From Candidatus Limnocylindria bacterium (GTDB lineage Bacteria > Chloroflexota > Limnocylindria > P2-11E): a stretch of 64,000 bases of DNA. The notes beneath the pieces were generated by a model. The model was not told the origin of the DNA. It did not search any database and was given only the letters and a program-made list of their open reading frames with translations. Positions within the stretch are counted from its first letter, which is position 1; each line of letters begins with the position of its first letter. The stretch is taken from assembly GCA_035651155.1 (NCBI GenBank), contig DASRGG010000005.1:74503-138502 (forward strand). Reading direction: 5' to 3'. A program made the position numbers and the translations under genes. Shown piece after piece: positions 37,090-56,022 of this stretch.

Positions 37090-37937
37090 GCGTCCTCGCC
37101 CGCTCCTACGAATCGCTGGACCTGGTCCGCGAAGGCGCGGAGGTCCGGGAGGCGCGTCTGGATCTGCCCGTACACGTCGTCGATGTCGGTCTGGTCGCGG
37201 TCGTACGCGAGCAGGTTGCGCAGGTTCGCAAGGTGCTCGAGCCGGTACGCCAGCGGCCGCTCGATGATCCCGTGCCCCGCCACGGCATCCAGTATGTCGT
37301 GATACGCCTCGGGCCGCGGAAGGGCGAGCGCCATGACCAGATACGCGCCCGTGCCGAACAGGAGCTCGACCGCCTGCTGCAGATACCACTGCGCCAGGCC
37401 GTACAGCTTGGGGTCCGACTTGAACTTCGCGTGCTCGATCGCGCGCAGGTCCTCGAGCAGCTGCGTGTACTCGCGCAGGCGCGCGAGGCGCGCGGCGATG
37501 TAGTCGCGGTCGATCGCGAAGCGGTCGCTCTTGGTGCGCTCCGCGAGCGCCTTCGACTGGAGGTCGTCGTACTTCTGGAAGTCGAGGTAATCCATCACCG
37601 CGCGGGTCTCCCACCGCACGCGGCGCTTCTCGTCGCGCTGGTAGAGGATGTTCCACGAGCGGATGACCTGGGCGCGCTGCAGCAGGCTCGCCTGGTTGAG
37701 GATCACCACGTCGAGCCCCTCGGTCTCGAGCGTCTTCGAGAGCTCGCTCACGAAGTAGACCTGGTAGTCGAAGAACTCGTTCGCCTTCACCTTGTCCAGG
37801 AGAAGGAGCGCGACGTCGATGTCGTTGTAGGCGCCCGCGAAGCGGCGGCCTGAGGCGTTGCCCTGCGTGTAGGCCGCGTCGACAGGGCTTCGCTGGAAGA
37901 GCGCGTGGAGCTGGGCCTGCCTTTCGAAGAGGTCCAT
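37086..37937 (-). CDS. Fused nucleotidyltransferase (MNT/Pol-beta NTase) + HEPN-like (HepT/DUF86-type) protein, inserted between purQ and purL
   Basis: N-terminal NTase motif GNASGRRFAGAYNDIDVALLL...GLDVVILNQ (GS, DxD, third Asp). The C-terminal region LEHLANLRNLLAYDRDQTDIDDVY aligns to the HepT RNxxxHxY motif with His replaced by Ala. 283 aa. This architecture also resembles KNTase-type nucleotidyltransferases. Confidence 0.6.
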   Translation of the reverse strand: MDLFERQAQLHALFQRSPVDAAYTQGNASGRRFAGAYNDIDVALLLLDKVKANEFFDYQVYFVSELSKTLETEGLDVVILNQASLLQRAQVIRSWNILYQRDEKRRVRWETRAVMDYLDFQKYDDLQSKALAERTKSDRFAIDRDYIAARLARLREYTQLLEDLRAIEHAKFKSDPKLYGLAQWYLQQAVELLFGTGAYLVMALALPRPEAYHDILDAVAGHGIIERPLAYRLEHLANLRNLLAYDRDQTDIDDVYGQIQTRLPDLRAFADQVQRFVGAGEDA

Positions 37938-37960
37938 CTCGGTCCTATCTATCTATACAT

Positions 37961-38674
<714 letters not shown>

Positions 38675-38798
38675 CCTCGAATGATGACAGGAAGGACCGC
38701 CGCGGGATTACTCCTGCGGCATCGCCAGCGGCACGGCGAGATCGTGTGCGAAGGAGCCCGCCACGCGATCAGATGAGCCGCGCACTCCCTGATTCGCA

Positions 38799-39815
38799 TC
38801 AGCCATTGATGTAGGTGTAGCCGAGACACTTGGGGACCTGTGCGACGAACGAGCTGTACAGGCTTCCATTCGGGTTGCGGATGACAACGGAGTAGCTCCC
38901 CGGAGGGACCGGCGACAGGCGGACGTATCCATAGTTCTGCAGCGTTCCGTTGATGTAGATCGCCTTCGGGCCGGGGCTCGTCGAGTCGGTGATTGAGATG
39001 AATTCCCTGCCGCAGAACGACCCCGGTGCGACTCCGCCACCGCCTCCCTCGGAGCGCGGCCACCAATAGCCCATCGGTACGTTCCCGACGGGGTTCGTGA
39101 CGACGCTCGGCTGATTCCCGACCACGCCCGCGCCACCCGTGAGCGATCCCGGATCGCTCGGTAGCGGCGCGACGGGCGCCTGCGCCACAGGGGTGGCTTG
39201 CGGCGGGACGGCCACCGGCACGCCGGGCACCTGCACGGCCGGCGCGGGCGGTAGCGCGACACCGGATAGGGGCGCGACCTTGTCGATGATCCAGAGCTGG
39301 TAGTCGGCAAGCGACGCGACGAATGCCGTGGTCGCGGCTTCCGTGGCGGATCGTCGCCAAACACCGACGGTGACGACCACGTTCCGCGTCCCCGTCGTGT
39401 AGACCACCGAACCCGCCGGAGCGCCTTGGAAGCTGTACGCGCACGCCTTCGCACCGTCGCCGACCACTGGCGCCCTGATCTCACCTGAGCTCAGCGCCGG
39501 CGGCGTATACGTCCAGTGGTCGCAGGTCGCCGCGGCGATCGCGTCGTAGGACCTCTCCGATGGGTCGAGCACCGTCACGTCGACGCTCACCCAGGGAAAC
39601 GCGCCGGGCCCACTCCACATGCGCGTCCAACTGTCCGTTCCAGCCTGCGCGTCGGTATCGACACCGTACCCCGTCAGTGGAAACTGCTCGGGGGGCAAAA
39701 TGACCTGCTCTGGTCTGAAGGTCACCGCATCCGGGATCGGGGAAGCCGCAACGACGCTCGGGGACACGGTGCCGGTGTAATACCCGGCGACGACGACGGC
39801 GCTGACGATCAGCAA
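38799..39815 (-). CDS. Hypothetical secreted/membrane-anchored protein (Gly/Pro/Val-rich, no recognised domain)
   Basis: N-terminal hydrophobic segment MLIVSAVVVAGYYTG. Diverse, non-Arg-rich composition and Cys pairs. Part of the roughly 2 kb island between purS and purQ. Confidence 0.45.
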   Translation of the reverse strand: MLIVSAVVVAGYYTGTVSPSVVAASPIPDAVTFRPEQVILPPEQFPLTGYGVDTDAQAGTDSWTRMWSGPGAFPWVSVDVTVLDPSERSYDAIAAATCDHWTYTPPALSSGEIRAPVVGDGAKACAYSFQGAPAGSVVYTTGTRNVVVTVGVWRRSATEAATTAFVASLADYQLWIIDKVAPLSGVALPPAPAVQVPGVPVAVPPQATPVAQAPVAPLPSDPGSLTGGAGVVGNQPSVVTNPVGNVPMGYWWPRSEGGGGGVAPGSFCGREFISITDSTSPGPKAIYINGTLQNYGYVRLSPVPPGSYSVVIRNPNGSLYSSFVAQVPKCLGYTYING

Positions 39816-39973
39816 GAGGCCGATGACGAGAAGCCGTGTGGCCTTTATGGGATGAGTCTAGGTACGTCCGTCAACAACGCCGGTGGATCGTGGTCGCTGC
39901 TCAGCGACTTTGACAAGGGAATCTGCTCAGAGACTTTGTGAGTGCCCCAGGGGAGGGAAAGGACGCAGTCGTC

Positions 39974-40411
39974 ATGCAGGAGGTCAAGCGCGAAGCGATC
40001 ATCCGGCGGATCCTCGCGGGCAAGCTCGACGTCACAGAAGCAGCGCTGCTGCTTGGGCTTTCCGAGCGGCAGATCTGGCGTCTCAAATCCCGCTTCCTCG
40101 CTGGTCCCGGCGGTCTCGCTCACGGCAACCGCGGCCACGCACCGGTCAACCGCATCGATCCCACGCGTGCGGCCCGCATCGTGTCCCTCGCCAAAGGGGC
40201 CTACGTCGGGATCAATGACAGCCAAGTCACCGATCTCCTCACCAGCCGCGAGGCGTTCAGCGATCCGATGCGCCGACACGACGAACAACGGAGGCTCGGT
40301 AACACCATCACCCCCGCACCGCGCCAAGGTGCGCTTCGAGGCAACGAAGAACGACGTCGTAGGGATCGTCGGGCGTTCCATAGACCTGCCACGTGCCACT
40401 CGGGAGACTGA
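39974..40411 (+). pseudogene. Remnant of an IS transposase (N-terminal HTH region only, ISNCY/IS1202-like)
   Basis: MQEVKREAIIRRILAGKLDVTEAALLLGLSERQIWRLKSRFLAGPGGLAHGNRGHAPVNRIDPTRAARIVSLAKGAYVGINDSQVTDLL matches the N-terminal HTH/ligand region of ISNCY-group transposases. After about 105 aa the frame degenerates and the DDE domain is absent. Two copies of CTCAG-N-GACTTTG about 27 nt apart lie upstream (about 39890-39940) and are a possible IR remnant. Confidence 0.5.
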
Positions 40412-40808
40412 ATTCGGTCGTGACGTGAACCGGCACGGTCTTCGATCGGTACTGCGTTCCCGTTCGGCCGTCAGCGAACGTGACCGCGGCTTCATCGTGA
40501 GCCGCGACGGTCCACCAGTCCGTGATGAACGTCACCGAGGAGTTCGAACGAGCCCGCTCAGGTGCAGGGGTGATGATGCGGATCATCGCGTCCGGCGACC
40601 GCAGCGCGTAGTCAGGAGCTCCGGGTGGGTATGACGAGCCGGTCCACCCAGGCGGCGCGCAACTGTTCACGGCCGCGAGGGTGTCGGTGCCGCGACGCGT
40701 TGGATTCACGGGCGTCGGATTCGGGGCCGAACAGGATGTCGCGCCGATGGCACTGATCACGAGCGCGGCAAGACCGCACCTGATGCGTCCCGTCGCGTTC
40801 CAGGACAT
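40308..40808 (-). CDS. Hypothetical lipoprotein
   Basis: Signal peptide plus lipobox-like LVISAIGATSC. Locally lower GC than its surroundings. Lies in the island next to the IS remnant. No recognised domain. Confidence 0.45.
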   Translation of the reverse strand: MSWNATGRIRCGLAALVISAIGATSCSAPNPTPVNPTRRGTDTLAAVNSCAPPGWTGSSYPPGAPDYALRSPDAMIRIITPAPERARSNSSVTFITDWWTVAAHDEAAVTFADGRTGTQYRSKTVPVHVTTEFSLPSGTWQVYGTPDDPYDVVLRCLEAHLGAVRG

Positions 40809-45385: not shown

Positions 45386-46987
45386 TCACTCCCACTCGAT
45401 CGTCGCCGGCGGCTTGCTCGAGACGTCGTACACCACGCGGTTCACCTCGGGGATCTCGTTCACGATCCGCGCGCTGATGCGCGCGAGCACGTCGTACGGG
45501 ATGCGCGCCCAGTCGGCGGTCATGTAGTCCTCGGTGGTGACGGCGCGCAGCGCGACGAGCCAGCCGTACGTGCGGAAGTCGCCCATCACGCCGACGCTCC
45601 GCACGGGCGTGAGCACCGCGAACGCCTGCGCGACGGTGCGGTAGAGATCCGCCGCGCGCAGCTCCTCGAGGAAGATCGCGTCCGCCTTGCGCAGCACGTC
45701 GAGGCGGTCCTTCGTGATCGCGCCGATGACGCGGACGGCGAGGCCGGGACCGGGGAACGGGTGGCGCCAGAGGATGTCCTCCGGGATGCCGAGCTCGGCG
45801 CCGACGCGGCGCACCTCGTCCTTGAACAGGCGCCGCAGCGGCTCGACGACGGCGAGGTCCATCACCTCGGGCAGGCCGCCGACGTTGTGGTGCGTCTTGA
45901 TGCGCGCGCTCGTCTTCGAATCGCGGCTCTTCGACTCGATGACATCCGGATAGATCGTCCCCTGCACGAGGAGGGCTTTGCCCGCTCCCGCGCCGACGAG
46001 GCCGATCTTCTTCGCCTGCTCCTCGAAGCTGCGGATGAACTCCTCGCCGATGATGGTGCGCTTCCGCTCCGGGTCCTCGACGTCCCGGAGCTTCGCGAGG
46101 AACCGCTCGGACGCGTCGACGTGCACGAGGCGCAGCCGCGGGCCGAACGTGGCGACGACCTGCTCGGCCTCGCCCGCGCGCAGCAGACCGTGATCGATGA
46201 AGACGCAGGTGAGGCGGTCGCCGATCGCCTTCGCGACCAGCGCGGCGGCGACCGCCGAGTCGACGCCGCCGGAGAGCGCGCAGATCGCGCGCCCATCGCC
46301 GATGGCGCGGCGCAATTCCGCGACCGCCTCCTCGACGAACGCGGCCGGCGTCCAGTCGCCCTCGCAGCCGCAGACGCGGTAGAGGAAGTTGCGCAGCACC
46401 TCGGAGCCGCGCGGCGTGTGCATGACCTCGGGGTGGAACTGCACCGCGAAGCGGTTCCGTCCGTCGCTCATCGCGGCGAGCGGAAGGCGGTCGGTGCTCG
46501 CGACGCCGTGGAATCCGGTGGGCAGGCGCTTCACCGTGTCGCCGTGGCTCATCCACGCGCGCTCGCTCTGGCCGAGCCCCTCGAAGAGTCCGGACGCGTC
46601 GCCGATCGTGACCGTCGCGGGGCCGTACTCGCGCTTCCCTTCCGGCGCGACCTCGCCGCCGAGCACGTGCGCCATGAGGTGCATGCCGTAGCAGATGCCG
46701 AGCACCGGGAAGCGGCCGTCGAGGATGGCCGGCTCGATGCCCGGCGCGTCCTTCTCGTACACCGACGCGGGCCCGCCGGAGAGGATCACGCCGACGACGC
46801 CGCGGCGCGCGAGCTCGCCGGCGGTCACGTCGTGAGGGAAGATCTCGCAGTACACGCGCGACTCACGCACGCGGCGCGCGATGAGCTGGGTGTACTGGCT
46901 TCCGTAGTCGAGGATCGCGAGGGTCTGGCGCCGCTGCTGGGCGGACTCCCCCTCCGTGCGGTGGAGGCGGGCGTCCGGCGCGCTCAC
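45386..46987 (-). CDS. guaA: GMP synthase (glutamine-hydrolysing) GuaA
   Basis: GATase domain ([18 protein letters not shown]...GICYGMHLM), the ATP-PPase motif SGGVDSAV, and the C-terminal dimerisation domain. Confidence 0.9.
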
Positions 46988-46994
46988 GTGTCGA

Positions 46995-48125
<1,131 letters not shown>

Positions 48126-48175
48126 CTACGGCGCATCGATCGAGAAGGGGCAGGGGGCAGAACGAGCGGCGCGGG

Positions 48176-48198
48176 AAGTAGCGAAAGGGCGAACGCGT
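48176..48198 (-). terminator. Candidate stem-loop terminator after the TasA/SipW operon
   Basis: GGCGAAC-(6)-GTTCGCC hairpin immediately 3' of the last gene's stop on the minus strand. The downstream tract is only weakly U-rich. Confidence 0.3.
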
Positions 48199-49244
48199 CA
48201 GTTCGCCGTGATCCGCCCGGACGCCGCGCTGCTCTTGGTGTTGCCGGCGTTGTCGGTCGTCGTGACGTAGAAGCAGTACTTCTTGTTCGACACCAGGCCG
48301 GTGACCGTGTAGCTCGTCGCGGCCGCGCTCACGGCGTACGACGTCGGGTAGTTCGCGGCGTTCACCGCGGGGCAGGCGCCGGGCCCGGCGGCCGAACGAT
48401 GGATGGTCTGGCTCGCGACACCCGACAGCGCGTCCGTCCCCTTCGCCCACGAGAGATCGATCTCGCCGTTGCCCTGGCCAGCCACCCCGGTGATGCCTGT
48501 CGCCGCCGTCGGGCTCGTGAGGTCGATCTTCACCGTCTGGTTCGCGCTCGCGCTGGCGTTGCCGGCGGCGTCGGTGCCGAAGTACGCGACGGTGTGGCCG
48601 GCGCTTTCGCCGCTGACGTTGAAGGTCACACCGGCCCCGCCCGTCGAGACCTGGCCACCGGCGTCCACGTTGCGCGTGACCGAGCCCATACCGGTGCCGG
48701 TGTCGACACCGCTCACCGTGACGGAGACCGTGGCGTTGAACCAGCCCGCGCAGCTGCCGCCGTTGCAGGTGATCGACATCGTGGGCGCGGTGCGGTCGGA
48801 GATCCCGTTCTGCGCCGTGCTGTTGGCGCTGGTGAACGTGCCGCCGCCGGTCACCTTCGCCTGGATGACGTACTGGTACGTGCCGTCGGCCGGCGGCGTG
48901 TCCGAGTACGCGAGCCCCGCGGTCGTCGCGATCTGCGCGTAGGGGCCACCGGCCGGACCGCGCAGCACGTTGTAGCTGAGCGTGTGACCGGTGCCGGGCG
49001 CCGTCGGCGTCGCGGTCCAGGAGAGGTTCACGACGCCACCGGCGCTCGAGGCCGGCGCGCTCTGCGAGGCCGGCGGCTGCACGAGCAGCGTGCTCACGTG
49101 GTTGCCCGGGTTCGTGCTCGTCGTGGCGAAGGTCGCGCCCGTGTCGCCCGAGACGATGCCGGCGAGCGCGAGCGTGACCATCAGCACGAATGCGAGCGCC
49201 AGAAGGCGATCGCCCTGCGACCGGAACGCGCTCCCCATGGCCAT
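48198..49244 (-). CDS. TasA/camelysin-family (SipW-cognate) secreted protein with extended Ig/FN3-like C-terminal domains
   Basis: The N-terminus MAMGSAFRSQGDRLLALAFVLMVTLALAGIVSGDTGATFATTSTNPGNHVS resembles SipW-cognate signal peptides (..AxFxDT..S..N.F). Ser/Thr/Gly-rich beta-sandwich repeats follow. Directly downstream of sipW. Confidence 0.6.
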   Translation of the reverse strand: MAMGSAFRSQGDRLLALAFVLMVTLALAGIVSGDTGATFATTSTNPGNHVSTLLVQPPASQSAPASSAGGVVNLSWTATPTAPGTGHTLSYNVLRGPAGGPYAQIATTAGLAYSDTPPADGTYQYVIQAKVTGGGTFTSANSTAQNGISDRTAPTMSITCNGGSCAGWFNATVSVTVSGVDTGTGMGSVTRNVDAGGQVSTGGAGVTFNVSGESAGHTVAYFGTDAAGNASASANQTVKIDLTSPTAATGITGVAGQGNGEIDLSWAKGTDALSGVASQTIHRSAAGPGACPAVNAANYPTSYAVSAAATSYTVTGLVSNKKYCFYVTTTDNAGNTKSSAASGRITAN

Positions 49245-49245
49245 G

Positions 49246-49863
49246 TCAGGCCACCTGCGTCCGCCGGTGCGTCGTGCGGAGCCAGCTCATGTGCGCGTTC
49301 CAGGCCTCGTCCGCGTCGGCGGCGACGAGGACCGGCGTGCGCTCGACCCGGCGGAGCGCGATCGGCTGCGGGGCCTTCGCCGCCGTCTCCTTGCGGAGGA
49401 CGAGGGCGCCGGCGCATGCGAAGAACGTGATCGCCGCGATGAGCGTGAGCGCGAGCCGCCAGTAGGCCTGGACGCCGAACGCGACGTACCCGGCCACCGG
49501 GACGCTCCCGCGGACGATGCCGACCTCGCCGGGGAACCACTTGTCCTCGGGATCCGCGACGAGGTTCGCGTCGCCCTTGGTCGTGAAGGTGAGTCCGGCC
49601 GAGCTGCGACCGATCGAGGTGACCCGGTGGGTCGTGGTCTGGCCGTACTGCTGGAAGGTGATGACGTCCCCGACCTTGATCTCCGACGGGCTCACCGGCT
49701 GGACGAGCACGAGCGATCCCTTGTGGATGCTCGGCTCCATCGAGCCGCCCGTGACGATGTAGGTGCCGAGGCCGAGGACGCGGATCCCGACGAACGCGAG
49801 GCAGAGCACGAAGAGGGCGGCGAAGGCCGCCAGCGAGAGGATGTTCCCGATCGTCTTCGTCAT
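49246..49863 (-). CDS. sipW: Signal peptidase I, SipW type (archaeal/ER-like S26)
   Basis: N-terminal TM segment, GSMEPSIHKGSLVLV (Ser of the SM box), ...VTHRV..., and a C-terminal TM segment, as in Bacillus SipW. Confidence 0.75.
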   Translation of the reverse strand: MTKTIGNILSLAAFAALFVLCLAFVGIRVLGLGTYIVTGGSMEPSIHKGSLVLVQPVSPSEIKVGDVITFQQYGQTTTHRVTSIGRSSAGLTFTTKGDANLVADPEDKWFPGEVGIVRGSVPVAGYVAFGVQAYWRLALTLIAAITFFACAGALVLRKETAAKAPQPIALRRVERTPVLVAADADEAWNAHMSWLRTTHRRTQVA

Positions 49864-49949
49864 CTTCGTGCTCCTTTCCTGCTCGTTCGGTCTTCAGACG
49901 CGGGGACCGGGGCGGTCCCTCCCAGCCGGACCGCCCCGGCCAGGGAGGG

Positions 49950-50483
49950 CTACTTGGCCGAGCCGGCCAGCTGCGTCGCCGTGTACGTGATCGTGAAGTC
50001 CTGCGTGAGGCTCTGGAACGTGTTGCCGGCCGAGCTCGGGAAGCTGAAGTCGTACGTGAGCGTGTCCGTGGCGCCCGCCGCGATCGTGCCCGAGGCCGCG
50101 AGCGTCATGTTCTTCAGCGCGCCGGTGTAGAGGACCGTCGCGCCACGCTTGACCGTGACCTGGAGGCCGTTGGTCGTGTCCGACCACAGGAGCGTGTTCG
50201 CCGTCGCGCTGACCGCGGCGGTGTAAGTGAACGGCGCGTTGCCGCTGTTCGTGACGACGACCGTGCGGCTCGCGGTGTCGCCGGGAACGAGGTTGGTGAT
50301 GTTGATGAGGTCATTGGCGTTCGGCTTGTCGTTGCTCATCGAGAGGGTCGCCGATCCGAACGTGTTGCTCGGGTTCGTGCTCGTCGCGGTGAAGTTCGCG
50401 GAGGTCTTGTCGGCGGTGGCGGTGAGGCCGAGCAGGACCAGTCCCGCGAGCGCCATGCCAGCCAGAAGGTTGAGCTTGCGCAT
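49950..50483 (-). CDS. TasA/camelysin-family secreted protein (SipW-cognate class signal peptide)
   Basis: MRKLNLLAGMALAGLVLLGLTATADKTSANFTATSTNPSNTFGSATLSM... is the canonical SipW-cognate N-region (FTDT..S..NTF.AGTL). 177 aa, Thr/Asn/Ala-rich. Confidence 0.7.
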   Translation of the reverse strand: MRKLNLLAGMALAGLVLLGLTATADKTSANFTATSTNPSNTFGSATLSMSNDKPNANDLINITNLVPGDTASRTVVVTNSGNAPFTYTAAVSATANTLLWSDTTNGLQVTVKRGATVLYTGALKNMTLAASGTIAAGATDTLTYDFSFPSSAGNTFQSLTQDFTITYTATQLAGSAK

Positions 50484-50714
50484 CCAGGTTGTCCCCTTCT
50501 CTTTCCGCTCCGCCGGTTCGCTCTCGTGTTCCTGGTCGGGCGGTTCTTGTCTTCGGGGGTCAGGTTCGGCCCTGCCGGAGCGCGCTCCATCGGCGTTCAG
50601 GGGGAGGAAGGGTCCTTCGTTGGTCGTAGTCCCAGGAAGGAGAACCGCCAGGGATCACCCGTTGGTATCACGCGCGTCCTCCCGGAGGAGTAGGCCGCGC
50701 GCCGGGAAGGCGCC

Positions 50715-51044
50715 TCAGCCCTGCTGGCGGCTCTTCGCGAGGCGCTCGCCGAAGGCGGACCCGCCACCGGCCCAGAGGTTCAGCATCTCGATGCGCCGCT
50801 TGCTCCAGCCGCGCGCGCGCCACCAGAACGCGGTGGCGGCGGTGAGGGCGACGAAGCAGGCGCCGGGGAAGACGACCTCCTGGAGGGCCACGAACAGGTC
50901 GAACCGGTGCGCCACGATCCCGAGCGCGAGCAGGACGAGCGCCTCGACCTCCGCGACGATCAGGAGGAAGACGAGGGCGAAGGAGGCCGCGCCGAAGATC
51001 TTCTTGGCGCGGTAGGGGAACGCGACGTCGAGAAGGCCACCCAC
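50715..51044 (-). CDS. Small hypothetical membrane protein (2-3 TM segments)
   Basis: Hydrophobic segments FALVFLLIVAEVEALVLLALGIV and FVALTAATAFWW. Sits between purA and the tasA-like gene. Weak evidence. Confidence 0.35.
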   Translation of the reverse strand: MGGLLDVAFPYRAKKIFGAASFALVFLLIVAEVEALVLLALGIVAHRFDLFVALQEVVFPGACFVALTAATAFWWRARGWSKRRIEMLNLWAGGGSAFGERLAKSRQQG

Positions 51045-51107
51045 GTCCGGCGGACTATCGGCCCTGGCGGGAGCCCGAGCAAGCCCCCCAACGTGTGGAG
51101 AACCGCG

Positions 51108-52370
51108 TCATAGCAGCGTGGCGCTGCGTTCCGGGCCGATGCCGACCATGCCGATGGGCGCGCCGACGGTGTGCTCGATCTTCTCGAGGTACGCCCGTGC
51201 CGCGGCCGGAAGGTGCGCACGGTCGGAGACGCCGTCGAGAGACGAGCTCCAGCCGGAGCAACGCTCGTACACGGGTGTGACGCGCTCGAGGAGCGCGGTC
51301 GGCGGCATGTCCGTGGTCCGCTTCCCGTCGAGGTCGTAGCCGACGCAGAACGGGATCTCCTCGTAGGCGCCGAGCACGTCGAGCTTCGTCACCGCGATCT
51401 CGGTGAAGGCGTTGAGGCGGTGCGCGTGCCGCGCGGCGACCGCGTCGAACCATCCGACGCGTCGCGGCCGTCCGGTCGTCGCTCCGTACTCGTTCGCCAT
51501 CTCGCGGAGCGCGTCGCCCTCCGTGCCCTTCATCTCGGTCGGGAAGGGACCCTCGCCCACCGCGGTCGAGTACGCCTTCACGACGCCGATGACCCGCGTG
51601 ATATATCGGGGCGGGATGCCGGCGCCGACCGCCGCCCCGCCGGCGAGCGGATTCGACGACGTGACGTACGGGTAGATGCCCCAGTCGAGATCGCGCATCG
51701 CGCCGAGCTGTCCCTCGAGCAGCACCCGCGCGTCGGTGCGCACCGCGTGCTCGACGAGCGGCAGCGTGTCGGCGATGCGCTCGCCCAGCGTCGCGGCCGC
51801 GCCCAGGACCTGATCGGCGACCTCGCGCGCGTCGAGCGGCGCGTCGCCCAGGCGCTCGATGATCTTGTTCTTCACCTCGAGCTCGTGCGCGACGCGCGCG
51901 CGGAAGCGCTTCTCGTCCCGGACCTCGTAGACCTGGATGCCGTGGCGCGCGACCTTGTCGGCGTACGCGGGCCCGACGCCCATGCCGGTGGTCCCGAGCT
52001 TCTGGCGCCCGCGCTCGCGCTCGTCGAGACGGTCGAGGAGCGTGTGCCACGGCATGAGCAGGTGCGCGCGATCCGAGACGCGCAGGTTCGCGGTCGCGAT
52101 GCCGTGGCGTTCGAGGTTCGCGAGCTCCTCGCAGAGCACCCGGAGGTCGACGACCGTCCCCGGCCCGATGACGCAGAGCGCCTTCGGATTGAAGACGCCC
52201 GACGGGACGAGATGCAGCTTGAACGTCCCGTACTGGTTCACGACGGTGTGCCCGGCGTTGTTGCCACCCTGGTATCGGATGACGACATCCGCCTCCTGCG
52301 CGAGGAGGTCGGTGATCTTGCCTTTGCCCTCGTCGCCCCACTGGGCTCCGACGACGGCGGTCACGGGCAC
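51108..52370 (-). CDS. purA: Adenylosuccinate synthetase PurA
   Basis: VVGAQWGDEGKGKITD (P-loop), GGNNAGHTVV, GTTGMGVGPAY. Confidence 0.9.
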   Translation of the reverse strand: MPVTAVVGAQWGDEGKGKITDLLAQEADVVIRYQGGNNAGHTVVNQYGTFKLHLVPSGVFNPKALCVIGPGTVVDLRVLCEELANLERHGIATANLRVSDRAHLLMPWHTLLDRLDERERGRQKLGTTGMGVGPAYADKVARHGIQVYEVRDEKRFRARVAHELEVKNKIIERLGDAPLDAREVADQVLGAAATLGERIADTLPLVEHAVRTDARVLLEGQLGAMRDLDWGIYPYVTSSNPLAGGAAVGAGIPPRYITRVIGVVKAYSTAVGEGPFPTEMKGTEGDALREMANEYGATTGRPRRVGWFDAVAARHAHRLNAFTEIAVTKLDVLGAYEEIPFCVGYDLDGKRTTDMPPTALLERVTPVYERCSGWSSSLDGVSDRAHLPAAARAYLEKIEHTVGAPIGMVGIGPERSATLL

Positions 52371-52388
52371 GTGTTCAGATGGTAAGGC

Positions 52389-52979
52389 TTACTCGTTCCC
52401 GAAGAGGATGGCGGCGCCGAGCTTCGCGATCTCCACGAGGGTGAGCGACCGCGACGGCTCGCGCGTCCACCACCGATCGGGATCCCAGTCGGGGTCATCC
52501 GCCGGCCGGTTGCGGAACGAGAGGCCCGCGGGCGCGAAGGCTCGCGAGAAGAGGAGCGCCGCGCGGCGCTGGTGGTATGGGCTCGTCACGAGGATGGCCG
52601 TGCGCAGGCCCCGCGCGCTCATGACCTGCGCGACAAGACGCGCGTTCTCCTCGGTCGTCGTCGCGTCGGGCTCGATGAGGATCGCCCGCTCGGGCACGCC
52701 GAGCTTCATGGCGTCGCGCTTCATGAGCTCGGCCGAGCTCACCGAGTTCGGGTCGAGCGAAGCGCCCGAGAAGAGGAGCAGCGGCGCGTAGCCCTGCTGC
52801 CAGAGGCGGACGGCGGTCTCGGTGCGCGGCCCGGTGTCGCCGGAGACCGCGACGATGACGTCCACCTTCGCGAGCGGATCCCTGACCGCGAGGGCGTGCC
52901 CCAGCACGACGAGCGTGCCGACGCCGATCGACAGCATGAGGACGGCGCCCACGAGGACGCCGAACAAGAACGTGCGCAT
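52389..52979 (-). CDS. YdcF/ElyC-family (DUF218) envelope protein
   Basis: N-terminal TM segment, then VDVIVAVSGDTGPRTETAVRLWQQGYAPLLLFSG...TTENA...ILVTSPYHQRRA, the DUF218 signature. Confidence 0.65.
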   Translation of the reverse strand: MRTFLFGVLVGAVLMLSIGVGTLVVLGHALAVRDPLAKVDVIVAVSGDTGPRTETAVRLWQQGYAPLLLFSGASLDPNSVSSAELMKRDAMKLGVPERAILIEPDATTTEENARLVAQVMSARGLRTAILVTSPYHQRRAALLFSRAFAPAGLSFRNRPADDPDWDPDRWWTREPSRSLTLVEIAKLGAAILFGNE

Positions 52980-54093: not shown

Positions 54094-56022
54094 GTGACCC
54101 TCGAGACACGCGTCGATCGCCAGGTCCCGTTCGACGAGGCCGCCGAGCAGCACGTCCTCGGCAGCCTGCTCATCGATCGCGACGCGATCTTCAAGATCGC
54201 CGACCTCCTCGCGACGAGCGACTTCTACATCGCGCGGCACCAGCGCATCTACGCGGCGATCTACGAGCTCCTGCAGCGCCGCGAGCGCATCGACCCGCTC
54301 ACGGTGCAGGTCGAGCTCGCGCGCCGCGAGGAGCTCGACCGCGTCGGCGGCGCGGCGTATCTGCGCACGCTCGTCGAGATCGTCGCGACGGCCGTCGAGA
54401 TCGAGCGGTACGCGCGCGTCGTGCTCGACAAGGCCATCCTGCGGCGTCTGCTGAACGCGGCGGCGCTCATCGCGGCCGACGCGTACGCCGAGCCGACGGA
54501 TATCCCGCTCACGCTGGACAAGGCCGAGCAGCGGATCTTCGCGCTGCGCGACGACACCACCAACGCGCAGCTGCGGCACATCCAGACGGCCCTTCAGGAC
54601 AACTTCCAGCACCTGACCGAGCGCATGGACCGCCCGTACGAGGTGTCCGGCATCCCGAGCGGCTTCAAGGAGATCGACTTCTTCACCGAGGGCTTCACGC
54701 AGGGCGACCTCGTCGTCCTCGCCGCGCGGCCGTCGGTCGGCAAGACGAGCCTCGCGCTGGCGATGGCCTTCAACATGGCCAAGCGCGGGCATCCGACGCT
54801 CGTCTTCTCGCTCGAGATGGACGCCAAGCAGATCGTGTCGCGCTTCCTCGCGATGAACAGCCGCACCGATCTCCTCGCGCTGCGCACCGGCAACGTCTTC
54901 GATACGGACGCGGCGAGCGCGCTCGCGGGCGTGCCGATCCTCATCGACGACACGCCGGGCCTCTCGATCATGGAGCTGCGCACGAAGGCGCGCCGCGCGA
55001 GCACCAACGATCGCCTCGAGGCGATCATCGTCGACTACATCCAGCTCATGCGCACCGGCGGCGACGAGGAGAACCGCGTCCAGGAGATCGCGACGATCAC
55101 GCGCAACCTGAAGTCGCTCGCGCGCGAGCTGAACGTCGTGATCATCGGCCTCTCGCAGCTCTCGCGCGCCGCGGGCGACGCGGGGCTCGAGCCGAAGCTC
55201 TCGACCCTTCGAGAATGCGTCACCGGTGACACGCTGGTGTGCCTCGCGGATGGCGGCCGCATCCCGATCCGAGAGCTGGTCGGCACGGCACCGGAAGTCT
55301 TCTCGGTAGCGAACGGCAGGATCGTGAAGGCACGAGCGGATCTCGTGTGGCGCGTCGGCGTCCGCCCCGTCTACCGCGTGAAGCTCGCGAGCGGCCGCGA
55401 GATACGCGCGACGGCAGACCATCGTCTTCACGCGTTCGGCGCATGGAAGCGGGTTCGCGACCTTCACGCCGGCGAGCGACTCGCGCTCGTACGCCAGCTT
55501 CCCGAACCCGAAGCGCGCACGTCTTCACGGTCGGAACCGCGCCGCGAGACGATGCGTCGGCGCGGCGTCACGACGCGCGCCATGGCCACGCCGCGGGGCA
55601 CACGGTACGGCGGAAGCTCACATTTCGCGTTCGCGCCCTCACGCGCGACGGTCGCCGACTACGCCCGGCCGCTTGACGACTCCGAGCTACAAGACGTCGC
55701 GACGAGCGATCTGTACTGGGATCGGGTCGCCGCCATCGAGCCGGCCGGCGAAGAAGCGGTGTTCGATCTGACCGTGCCGGGACCGGCGTCCTGGCTCGCC
55801 GACGGCATCGTCTCGCACAATTCGGGCGCCATCGAGCAGGACGCGGACATCGTGCTCATGCTTTGGAAGGACAAGGAGGAGACGCCCGCGGGCGCGCCGC
55901 GTCTCATCCACGGCAGCGTCGCGAAGAACCGCAACGGCCCCACGGGCATCTTCCAGCTCCTCTTCGCCGGCGAGCAGGCACGCTTCTTCAGCAAGGCCGC
56001 CGACGACCAGATGCCGGTATGA
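54094..56022 (+). CDS. dnaB: Replicative DNA helicase DnaB paralog 1, interrupted by a 202-aa mini-intein
   Basis: GTG start. N-terminal DnaB domain, Walker A ARPSVGKTSL, helicase motifs, and the C-extein SGAIEQDADIV...KNRNGPTG. The intein runs from Cys375 (LRE/CVTGDTLVCL) to VSHN/S. The stop overlaps the start of paralog 2 (ATGA). Confidence 0.85.
   Translation: MTLETRVDRQVPFDEAAEQHVLGSLLIDRDAIFKIADLLATSDFYIARHQRIYAAIYELLQRRERIDPLTVQVELARREELDRVGGAAYLRTLVEIVATAVEIERYARVVLDKAILRRLLNAAALIAADAYAEPTDIPLTLDKAEQRIFALRDDTTNAQLRHIQTALQDNFQHLTERMDRPYEVSGIPSGFKEIDFFTEGFTQGDLVVLAARPSVGKTSLALAMAFNMAKRGHPTLVFSLEMDAKQIVSRFLAMNSRTDLLALRTGNVFDTDAASALAGVPILIDDTPGLSIMELRTKARRASTNDRLEAIIVDYIQLMRTGGDEENRVQEIATITRNLKSLARELNVVIIGLSQLSRAAGDAGLEPKLSTLRECVTGDTLVCLADGGRIPIRELVGTAPEVFSVANGRIVKARADLVWRVGVRPVYRVKLASGREIRATADHRLHAFGAWKRVRDLHAGERLALVRQLPEPEARTSSRSEPRRETMRRRGVTTRAMATPRGTRYGGSSHFAFAPSRATVADYARPLDDSELQDVATSDLYWDRVAAIEPAGEEAVFDLTVPGPASWLADGIVSHNSGAIEQDADIVLMLWKDKEETPAGAPRLIHGSVAKNRNGPTGIFQLLFAGEQARFFSKAADDQMPV
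55216..55821 (+). mobile_element. Mini-intein in DnaB paralog 1 (no endonuclease domain; low-complexity internal linker)
   Basis: Block A CVTGDTLV and block G IVSHN followed by Ser. No LAGLIDADG/HNH motifs. The internal segment ...EPEARTSSRSEPRRETMRRRGVTTRAMATPRGTRYGGSS... is low complexity. Confidence 0.7.

Follow-up and report, generated by a model that had tools for sequence, protein, structure and literature searches.

Gene content of the locus

The stretch of DNA analysed here, hereafter the window, covers 64 kb of a metagenome-assembled genome (MAG) of Candidatus Limnocylindria (Chloroflexota), an uncultured soil bacterium. Three adjacent open reading frames (ORFs) on its minus strand, at positions 48198-50483, form what we call the module: a tasA-like gene, a gene for a sipW-type signal peptidase and a gene for a longer protein of 348 aa (Table 1). 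A preliminary description of this DNA had likened the group to the tapA-sipW-tasA biofilm-fibre operon of Bacillus; the coordinates that it gave are correct, and the mapped flanking genes confirm that the module lies between purA and the guaB-like and guaA genes of purine biosynthesis. The GC content is ~70% across the whole window region. Based on the gene content, the family memberships, the predicted folds, a shared N-terminal cassette and the conserved gene order, we suggest that the three genes probably encode a fibre of the TasA superfamily, which would polymerise by donor-strand complementation.

The last two genes of the module are tightly joined, as read from the sequence, with the ATG of the 348-aa gene only 1 nt past the sipW stop codon (TGAcATG). 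Farther downstream of the IMP dehydrogenase (IMPDH) gene follow guaA, purD, purE, purB, purS and purQ.

Table 1. Features in and around the module, in the order of transcription (positions in the 64-kb window).
Feature	Coordinates	Strand	Size and content	Position or basis
purA	52370..51108	minus
Small predicted membrane protein	51044..50715	minus	109 aa, two hydrophobic segments	between purA and the module
Non-coding gap			231 nt	between the 109-aa ORF and the tasA-like gene
Conserved non-coding element	50553..50634	minus	~80 nt; ...ACTACGACCAACGAAGG..CCTCCCCC..CCGATGG..~19 nt..GAACCT
Candidate hairpin in the 5' untranslated region (5'-UTR)	50505..50546	minus	CCGCC...GGCGG	just upstream of the tasA-like Shine-Dalgarno sequence
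tasA-like gene (putative major subunit)	50483..49950	minus	177 aa	PF12389, fold, family profile
Gap			86 nt, holding the 13-bp GC hairpin	between the tasA-like gene and sipW
GC-rich hairpin	49906..49940	minus	13-bp stem (CCGGGGCGGUCC...GGACCGCCCCGG), 9-nt loop, no U tail
sipW-type signal peptidase I	49863..49246	minus	205 aa	TIGR02228, SEC11 alignment
Putative minor-subunit gene	49244..48198	minus	348 aa	shared cassette and FN3/Ig model
Gap			96 nt	between the 348-aa gene and the IMPDH gene
IMPDH gene (guaB-like)	48101..46995	minus	CBS-less

The TasA-like protein, a putative major subunit

The small protein had been assigned to the TasA/camelysin family, and the Pfam score, a family profile and the predicted fold all agree with this assignment. 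The protein matches PF12389 (Peptidase_M73/camelysin) over residues 9-82 with 38.4 bits, against a gathering score of 22.5 (E = 1.5e-9). An exhaustive search found relatives in 832 clusters (50% identity) at E <= 1e-3, mostly of 160-200 aa, and PF12389 is the precomputed domain on 119 of 120 homologues among the matches listed. A profile of 55 relatives aligns with Bacillus subtilis TasA (5OF1, 8AUR) at E = 2e-11, with the NLxPGD, xNxG and FQG..ATQ motifs in register, and with AbpX at E = 4e-5. The AlphaFold2 monomer model, with a mean predicted local distance difference test (pLDDT) of 88.2, predicts a jelly-roll beta-sandwich like that of TasA. Its best match in the PDB by Foldseek is 8AUR_A, the TasA fibre (E = 9e-6, TM 0.59), followed by 7UEG (AbpA), 9H8B (cannulae) and then Fim/Pap pilins, all of which are donor-strand fibre subunits. 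In addition, an NCBI record 100% identical to the protein, from a Candidatus Limnocylindria MAG, is named "TasA family protein". The score against the Bacillus TasA equivalog NF046066 is 12.4 bits, with a cutoff of 450. Therefore, the protein is a distant member of the family rather than an orthologue of TasA.

The 177-aa precursor is predicted to carry a Sec signal peptide cut at TSA(29)|N30-F31, by alignment with the TWA|AF site of TasA. The mature major subunit would then have 148 aa and begin with the putative donor strand NFTATSTNPSN. Phe31, which would be the second residue after the cut (P2'), is one of four invariant columns in the alignment of 55 sequences of 26-93% identity.

The dedicated signal peptidase

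The enzyme encoded next to the tasA-like gene is of the SipW type found in the endoplasmic reticulum (ER) and in archaea, as the preliminary description had proposed. It scores 85.1 bits against TIGR02228, the archaeal-type signal peptidase I (cutoff 51.85, E = 4.7e-24), and human SEC11C/SEC11A are its sole PDB sequence matches at E <= 1 (E = 3e-9). A conventional LepB-type enzyme, the possibility that had been raised against that proposal, is not what the profiles indicate, for the LepB-type TIGR02227 reaches 35.6 bits, under its cutoff of 47. The SEC11 alignment places Ser41 in GSMEP, His79 in HRV and Asp98 in KGDxN at the positions that, from established knowledge of SEC11 and SipW, we take to be catalytic, in agreement with a Ser-His(-Asp) enzyme and not with one that uses a Ser-Lys dyad. 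There are two hydrophobic membrane segments, one N-terminal and one C-terminal. The Bacillus SipW equivalog NF046067 gives 58.9 bits, far below its cutoff of 190, so that the enzyme is not an orthologue of SipW.

As for the reason to keep such an enzyme, passages of PMC10269814 report Phe at P2' as incompatible with, or inefficiently cleaved by, E. coli LepB, and offer this as the rationale for SipW. If Phe at P2' is as poor for LepB as these passages state, the presence of a dedicated peptidase would be explained.

A sipW gene of a different form was seen in Paenibacillus koleovorans (locus L029, 8443-9648), downstream of a TasA-like gene of 46% identity. Its ORF continues through an acidic, Ser-rich linker into a second hydrophobic segment and a TasA-like N-terminal motif (SSAYALFSRNSNNSS), which is explained either by a fusion of the peptidase with a substrate or by a frameshift in the assembly.

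The 348-aa protein and the shared N-terminal cassette

The two proteins that flank the peptidase were said to share one N-terminal motif, and this is the case. In a six-frame translation of the window, the motif A-x-F-x-x-T-S-T-N-P-x-N (ANFTATSTNPSN / ATFATTSTNPGN) occurs at two sites only, which are in these two proteins. By comparison of the two families with hhalign, columns 20-48 of the TasA-like family align with columns 44-72 of the 348-aa family (29 columns, E = 2e-5), and nothing more. The 29 columns take in the last part of the signal peptide and ~18 residues after it. The 348-aa protein is predicted to be cut at TGA(37)|T38-F39, a site directly followed by the cassette TFATTSTNPGN.

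The motif had been taken for a signal-peptide region recognised by SipW. It does adjoin the predicted cleavage sites, but most of it lies past them, and by the TasA alignment corresponds to the mature donor strand. In TasA, the donor strand comprises residues 28-38, and the N-terminus of TapA mimics it (PMC9674648); an aromatic clamp at donor position 2 has been described for fibres of the TasA superfamily (bioRxiv 10.64898/2026.01.04.697558). Based on the TasA alignment, the invariant Phe31 and this precedent, the shared motif may be read mainly as a mature donor strand.

After the cassette, the 348-aa protein continues with an FN3 domain, an Ig-like domain of the OmpL47/Big_3 type and a second FN3 domain. 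In Pfam and NCBIfam it has weak fn3/Big/OmpL47 matches only, none of them to TapA/YqxM, and its NCBI name is "hypothetical". The AlphaFold2 model (pLDDT 84) has three confident beta-sandwich domains, residues 27-51 fall below 50, and the cassette is disordered in this monomer. Its Foldseek neighbours are tandem FN3 arrays. Consequently, the preliminary description was right about the Ig/FN3-like extensions of the long protein and wrong in calling it a TasA paralog, as only the 29 columns are shared and no TasA jelly-roll fold is seen in the model. Neither a sortase motif nor a C-terminal membrane anchor is present in the sequence. The body is modelled as complete Ig-type folds, which would leave no acceptor groove.

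The part beyond the cassette varies among relatives. Among the nearest relatives of the module, the major subunit is 80-94% identical and the minor protein 57-73%. In the clade L020-L026 (locus labels are those of our set of related loci), the third gene is homologous only over residues 8-128, with 38% identity covering the signal peptide, the cassette and the first FN3 domain, while its distal two-thirds are unrelated to those of the 348-aa protein (L023 was compared); a Pfam search with the divergent L023 gene gave nothing useful. Another homologue, P0126 (484 aa), has additional tandem copies of the central Ig-like domain.

Proposed assembly of the fibre

The following scheme would account for these features. 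The 177-aa precursor would be exported by Sec and cut after Ala29 by the adjacent ER/archaeal-type peptidase; the position is taken from the TasA cut, A27|A28-F29, which likewise puts Phe at P2'. The mature 148-aa jelly-roll subunits would polymerise outside the cell. As in TasA (8AUR) and AbpA (7UEG), the N-terminal strand N-F-T-A-T-S-T-N-P-S-N of each subunit would enter the groove of its neighbour. The same enzyme may process the 348-aa protein, in which the same donor strand would be joined to three complete FN3/Ig domains. Such a protein could donate a strand and could not accept one, so that it would fit at one fibre end only, as a nucleator or end-adhesin like TapA or AbpB, with distal domains that vary between lineages. 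The earlier suggestion of a fibre-end or adhesin subunit agrees with this evidence, since the cassette sits on complete FN3/Ig domains.

Two precedents suggest how such a minor subunit may work. In TapA, the N-terminus is donated, the Ig fold is complete and the abundance, like that of SipW, is low (PMC10151520). For AbpB, a role in starting the filament has been proposed, with adhesin domains at its distal end (PMC9245690). We infer that the 348-aa protein resembles TapA and AbpB as a fibre nucleator or end subunit; it is an analogue of TapA, not a homologue. The GC hairpin after the tasA-like gene and the 1-nt junction between sipW and the minor gene would hold the amounts of peptidase and minor subunit well under that of the major subunit, as in Bacillus, and the module would be governed by its own upstream control region.

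Conservation of the module and related loci

A search for related loci, run from an alignment of 15 closer TasA-like sequences, found the order DUF218-purA-small ORF-tasA-sipW-third gene-guaB-guaA-purD in about 15 MAG loci of Limnocylindria/Chloroflexota, down to 59% TasA identity. The small ORF of this order, that of the 109-aa membrane protein, has zero matches in Pfam or NCBIfam. It is syntenic in most module loci with 47-78% identity and was undetected in L015, L017 and L030, and its membership of the module is uncertain.

Two short contigs with tasA loci of the Limnocylindria type carry other taxonomic labels, namely L005 (labelled Acidimicrobiia, 83% identity) and L022 (labelled Saccharimonadales, 66% identity). 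The module synteny is also shared by L005, and both contigs are probably mis-binned.

Further tasA-like genes occur outside the three-gene arrangement or in addition to it. Orphan paralogues of 178 aa and 71-75% identity were found in L002, L003, L008-L014, L016 and L018 (for example, L002 8001-8537). They are flanked by an AhpC/redoxin gene and thrS, and a peptidase gene is missing from their surroundings; a Pfam search with the gene that follows the orphan paralogue gave nothing useful. An orphan and a full module occur in the same MAGs in two cases, L012 with L015 and L017 with L018. Some module loci have a second, divergent TasA-like gene of 40-45% identity, located immediately ahead of the conserved element that precedes the main tasA gene (L015 760-1164, L017 7461-7820, L019 7441-7818 and L030 8001-8381).

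Hairpin, upstream element and other control signals

A hairpin terminator had been reported to follow the module. The hairpin exists, but it is internal, located after the tasA-like gene and before sipW, and no terminator was called anywhere in 46500-52500. An intrinsic terminator was rejected for this hairpin, which has no U tract, no match in the terminator scan and a folding energy with a z-score of -1.28. The 96 nt after the 348-aa gene contain no terminator-like structure either and fold like shuffled sequences (z = 0.26). The stem of the internal hairpin is found again in seven or eight related loci, where the loop varies (L001, L005, L006, L007, L015 and L019; less perfect in L028). We infer that the hairpin may act as an attenuator that sets the stoichiometry of major to minor subunit.

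In the clade of L020, L021 and L023-L026, the GC hairpin is missing from the region ~20-100 nt past the tasA stop codon. Pairing is predicted there between the early coding sequence of sipW and its Shine-Dalgarno and start region (for example, GGAGGGCGACCGTG...CGCGGTCGCTCTCTTC), which could be another means of holding the translation of the peptidase low.

The region upstream of the tasA-like gene contains a conserved element with the consensus ...TACCAAYG..GG...YCTCCCCC...CCGATGG...~19 nt...GATAGT, whose last block is GATAGT in most relatives and GAACCT in the window. It aligns across all module loci, as well as upstream of the orphan tasA paralogues in unrelated contexts. There is one element per locus, always ahead of a main tasA gene, and the single copy in the window is at 50588-50623. 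The Rfam models gave nothing credible, either for the whole window at gathering thresholds or for 48000-51200 at E <= 1, and RNAalifold found no consensus structure over 21 upstream regions, for which reason a riboswitch or leader RNA was dropped. The two negative results together make a promoter or operator the likelier nature of the element, and it is probably one. No convincing sigma-70, sigma-28 or extracytoplasmic-function (ECF) hexamers were seen by eye in the conserved blocks, and the promoter scan gave none.

Closer to the gene, a small 5'-UTR hairpin with a 5-bp stem is possible, and the signal for it is weak: 86% of the cells are paired, compared with 28-51% in slid controls, and a single pair covaries (CG/GC/AU/GU).

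The purine cluster and other neighbouring genes

The preliminary description had regarded the purine cluster as otherwise contiguous. It is not, because other inserts interrupt it elsewhere. The interval between purS and purQ is interrupted by two minus-strand ORFs without a family match (39845-40495 and 38671-39444), for which Pfam gave nothing useful. Just past purQ lies a gene for a 283-aa protein in which a HepT-like RNase domain is combined with a nucleotidyltransferase. In this part of the window (37086-40800), the local GC content drops to ~0.66-0.67, which suggests acquired DNA. The IMPDH adjacent to the module has 368 aa and no CBS/Bateman pair; it has a full-length Pfam IMPDH match and is below the cutoff of TIGR01302.

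On the plus strand, a DnaB helicase ORF of 642 aa (54094-56022) contains an intein-like insertion (...LRECVTGDTLV...GIVSHNSGAIEQ...). In the related locus L001, two tandem DnaB genes take the place of the insertion-bearing one.

Alternative explanations

Could the 177-aa protein be a secreted metalloprotease of the camelysin type (Peptidase_M73) instead of a structural subunit? The matched Pfam family is indeed named "Camelysin metallo-endopeptidase", and some homologues are labelled "camelysin-like metallo-endopeptidase" by JGI. However, the mature 148 aa contain 7 Asp and 0 His, 0 Glu and 0 Cys (isoelectric point 4.85), so that a zinc site is impossible, the Pfam match is limited to the N-terminal part and the fold neighbours are fibre subunits. 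This explanation is scarcely credible, and membership of the MEROPS M73 camelysin metalloproteases is ruled out by the composition, as the metal-binding residues His and Glu are absent. An explanation with more in its favour concerns the 348-aa protein, which might be an independent surface or matrix adhesin, processed by the SipW-type enzyme and standing outside the fibre, with the motif serving for peptidase recognition only. Its likeness to the TasA family is restricted to the 29 columns at the cleavage site, complete FN3/Ig domains are typical for free adhesins, and SipW-type enzymes are tied to substrates with Phe at P2' in the passages of PMC10269814 mentioned above. However, the shared segment reaches 11-18 residues into the mature protein. 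A signal peptidase is expected to read only the residues immediately flanking its cleavage site. In addition, the cassette persists in proteins whose distal two-thirds are of a different kind, it tracks the segment of the major subunit within genomes, and TapA and AbpB provide precedents for a fibre subunit of this kind. We therefore regard the independent adhesin as unlikely, though as the most serious of the alternatives considered here.

Another question is whether the position of the module among the purine genes has a function. The module could be coupled to purine metabolism, that is, co-transcribed with purA and guaB-guaA so that matrix production follows the GTP/c-di-GMP status, its place at the IMP branch point being selected. 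All the genes are on one strand, the arrangement is kept in the ~15 loci down to 59% TasA identity, and there is no canonical terminator between the 348-aa gene and guaB. On the other side, the tasA-like gene is preceded by an upstream region of its own (231 nt) that holds a conserved element, this element is also found ahead of orphan paralogues far from purine genes, the purine cluster has other unrelated inserts, and neither a purine riboswitch nor any other Rfam element is present. The conserved element at tasA speaks for a separate regulation of the module, and thereby weakens a functional role of its position. We consider the purine coupling very improbable. If the module has an upstream control region of its own, as appears to be the case, the simplest reading of its position is an old insertion, shared by the whole class, that fell between two purine transcription units.

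Several points also weigh against the fibre module that we propose. The fibre is predicted here from genes and monomer models, the cleavage sites come from alignment, and the host organism is uncultured. With both Bacillus equivalog models, for TasA and for SipW, the scores stay far under the cutoffs, so that the proteins are not orthologues. The hairpin has a folding energy that is ordinary for this GC content and lacks a U tail, which speaks against its part in the scheme. Both N-terminal segments of 60 aa gave zero NCBIfam matches at E <= 10, and thus none to a SipW-cognate signal-peptide model, which may be absent from the release or lost at the speed filters. A cell-wall or membrane anchor is not recognisable in the minor protein, which may therefore sit at either the tip or the base of the fibre. 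Finally, the similarity between the cassettes of the major and minor proteins is 74% within a genome and 66% between genomes (permutation p = 3e-4; within one clade p = 0.04), which is suggestive but confounded by phylogeny.

Comparison with known fibre systems

The closest parallel to the proposed fibre module is tapA-sipW-tasA of B. subtilis, which has the same three roles: a major jelly-roll subunit, an ER/archaeal-type peptidase and a minor protein that mimics the donor strand. TasA likewise has Phe at P2' and the NLxPGD, NxG and FQ...ATQ motifs in common with the protein described here, and in both systems the gene for the minor subunit is tightly joined to sipW. However, the gene order is tasA-sipW-minor here and tapA-sipW-tasA in Bacillus, and the mature major subunit has 148 aa instead of the 234 aa of Bacillus TasA, the long insertions and the C-terminal tail being missing. 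Homology to TapA is not detectable in the minor protein, which is built of three FN3/Ig domains. Unlike those of the Bacillus operon, the genes belong to a high-GC member of the Chloroflexota and lie in a purine cluster.

The second-best fold match to the major subunit is AbpA of Pyrobaculum calidifontis (7UEG). Its partner AbpB would start the filament by strand donation and act as an adhesin through its distal beta-domains, the same logic that we propose for the 348-aa protein. The AbpA/AbpB locus differs in being an eight-gene operon without a dedicated peptidase, and the sequence relationship is far more remote.

The AbpX-type calcium-dependent biomatrix proteins (9SJ2/9RHP), which are also reported in Chloroflexota, are of similar mature size (~150-165 aa) and, like the TasA-like protein here, have an aromatic residue at donor position 2. 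According to bioRxiv 10.64898/2026.01.04.697558, they are distinguished by an acidic donor position 4, ~15% Asp/Glu and a ten-helix peptidase. In contrast, the major subunit here has Ala at position 4, 7 of its 148 mature residues are Asp and none is Glu (4.7% in total), and the peptidase has two membrane segments. Therefore, an assignment to this calcium-dependent subfamily was rejected.

The Tafi pili of haloarchaea (TafA/E pilins, TafD peptidase, TafC tip and TafF anchor) are alike in combining a pilin with a dedicated peptidase and a variable end protein, and in both systems the variation is concentrated in the accessory structural proteins. However, the Tafi pilins are a distinct pilin family exported by Tat or Sec, and their loci include a membrane anchor and a transcription regulator, neither of which was seen here.

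Implications for Limnocylindria and the TasA superfamily

PF12389/TasA homologues have already been noted in Chloroflexota (PMC9245690), and we found no paper on fibres of Limnocylindria. The kinship of the module with the biofilm-fibre operon of Bacillus is real, though it could be expected. It leaves the picture of the TasA superfamily unchanged and adds one further lineage to it. A more ambitious picture can be drawn if several points held jointly. The abundant uncultured soil and freshwater class Limnocylindria would have a minimal fibre of 148-aa subunits; a portable cassette of signal peptide, donor strand and first FN3 domain, placed on interchangeable distal domains, would provide lineage-specific fibre ends; an undescribed, dedicated cis-element would co-regulate the module and the orphan major-subunit genes; and the class-wide placement between purA and guaB-guaA, at the IMP branch point, would reflect a real coupling of matrix production to the guanine-nucleotide status. 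That all of these are true together seems improbable to us.

The module nevertheless provides a concrete candidate for a fibre system in a widespread uncultured class of Chloroflexota. The minor protein, "hypothetical" at NCBI, can now be read as an initiator or end piece of the TapA/AbpB type. The upstream element that the module has in common with the orphan paralogues could define a regulon for matrix production. Because of its small size and its lack of His, Glu and Cys, the major subunit would be a convenient minimal model for chaperone-free donor-strand polymerisation.

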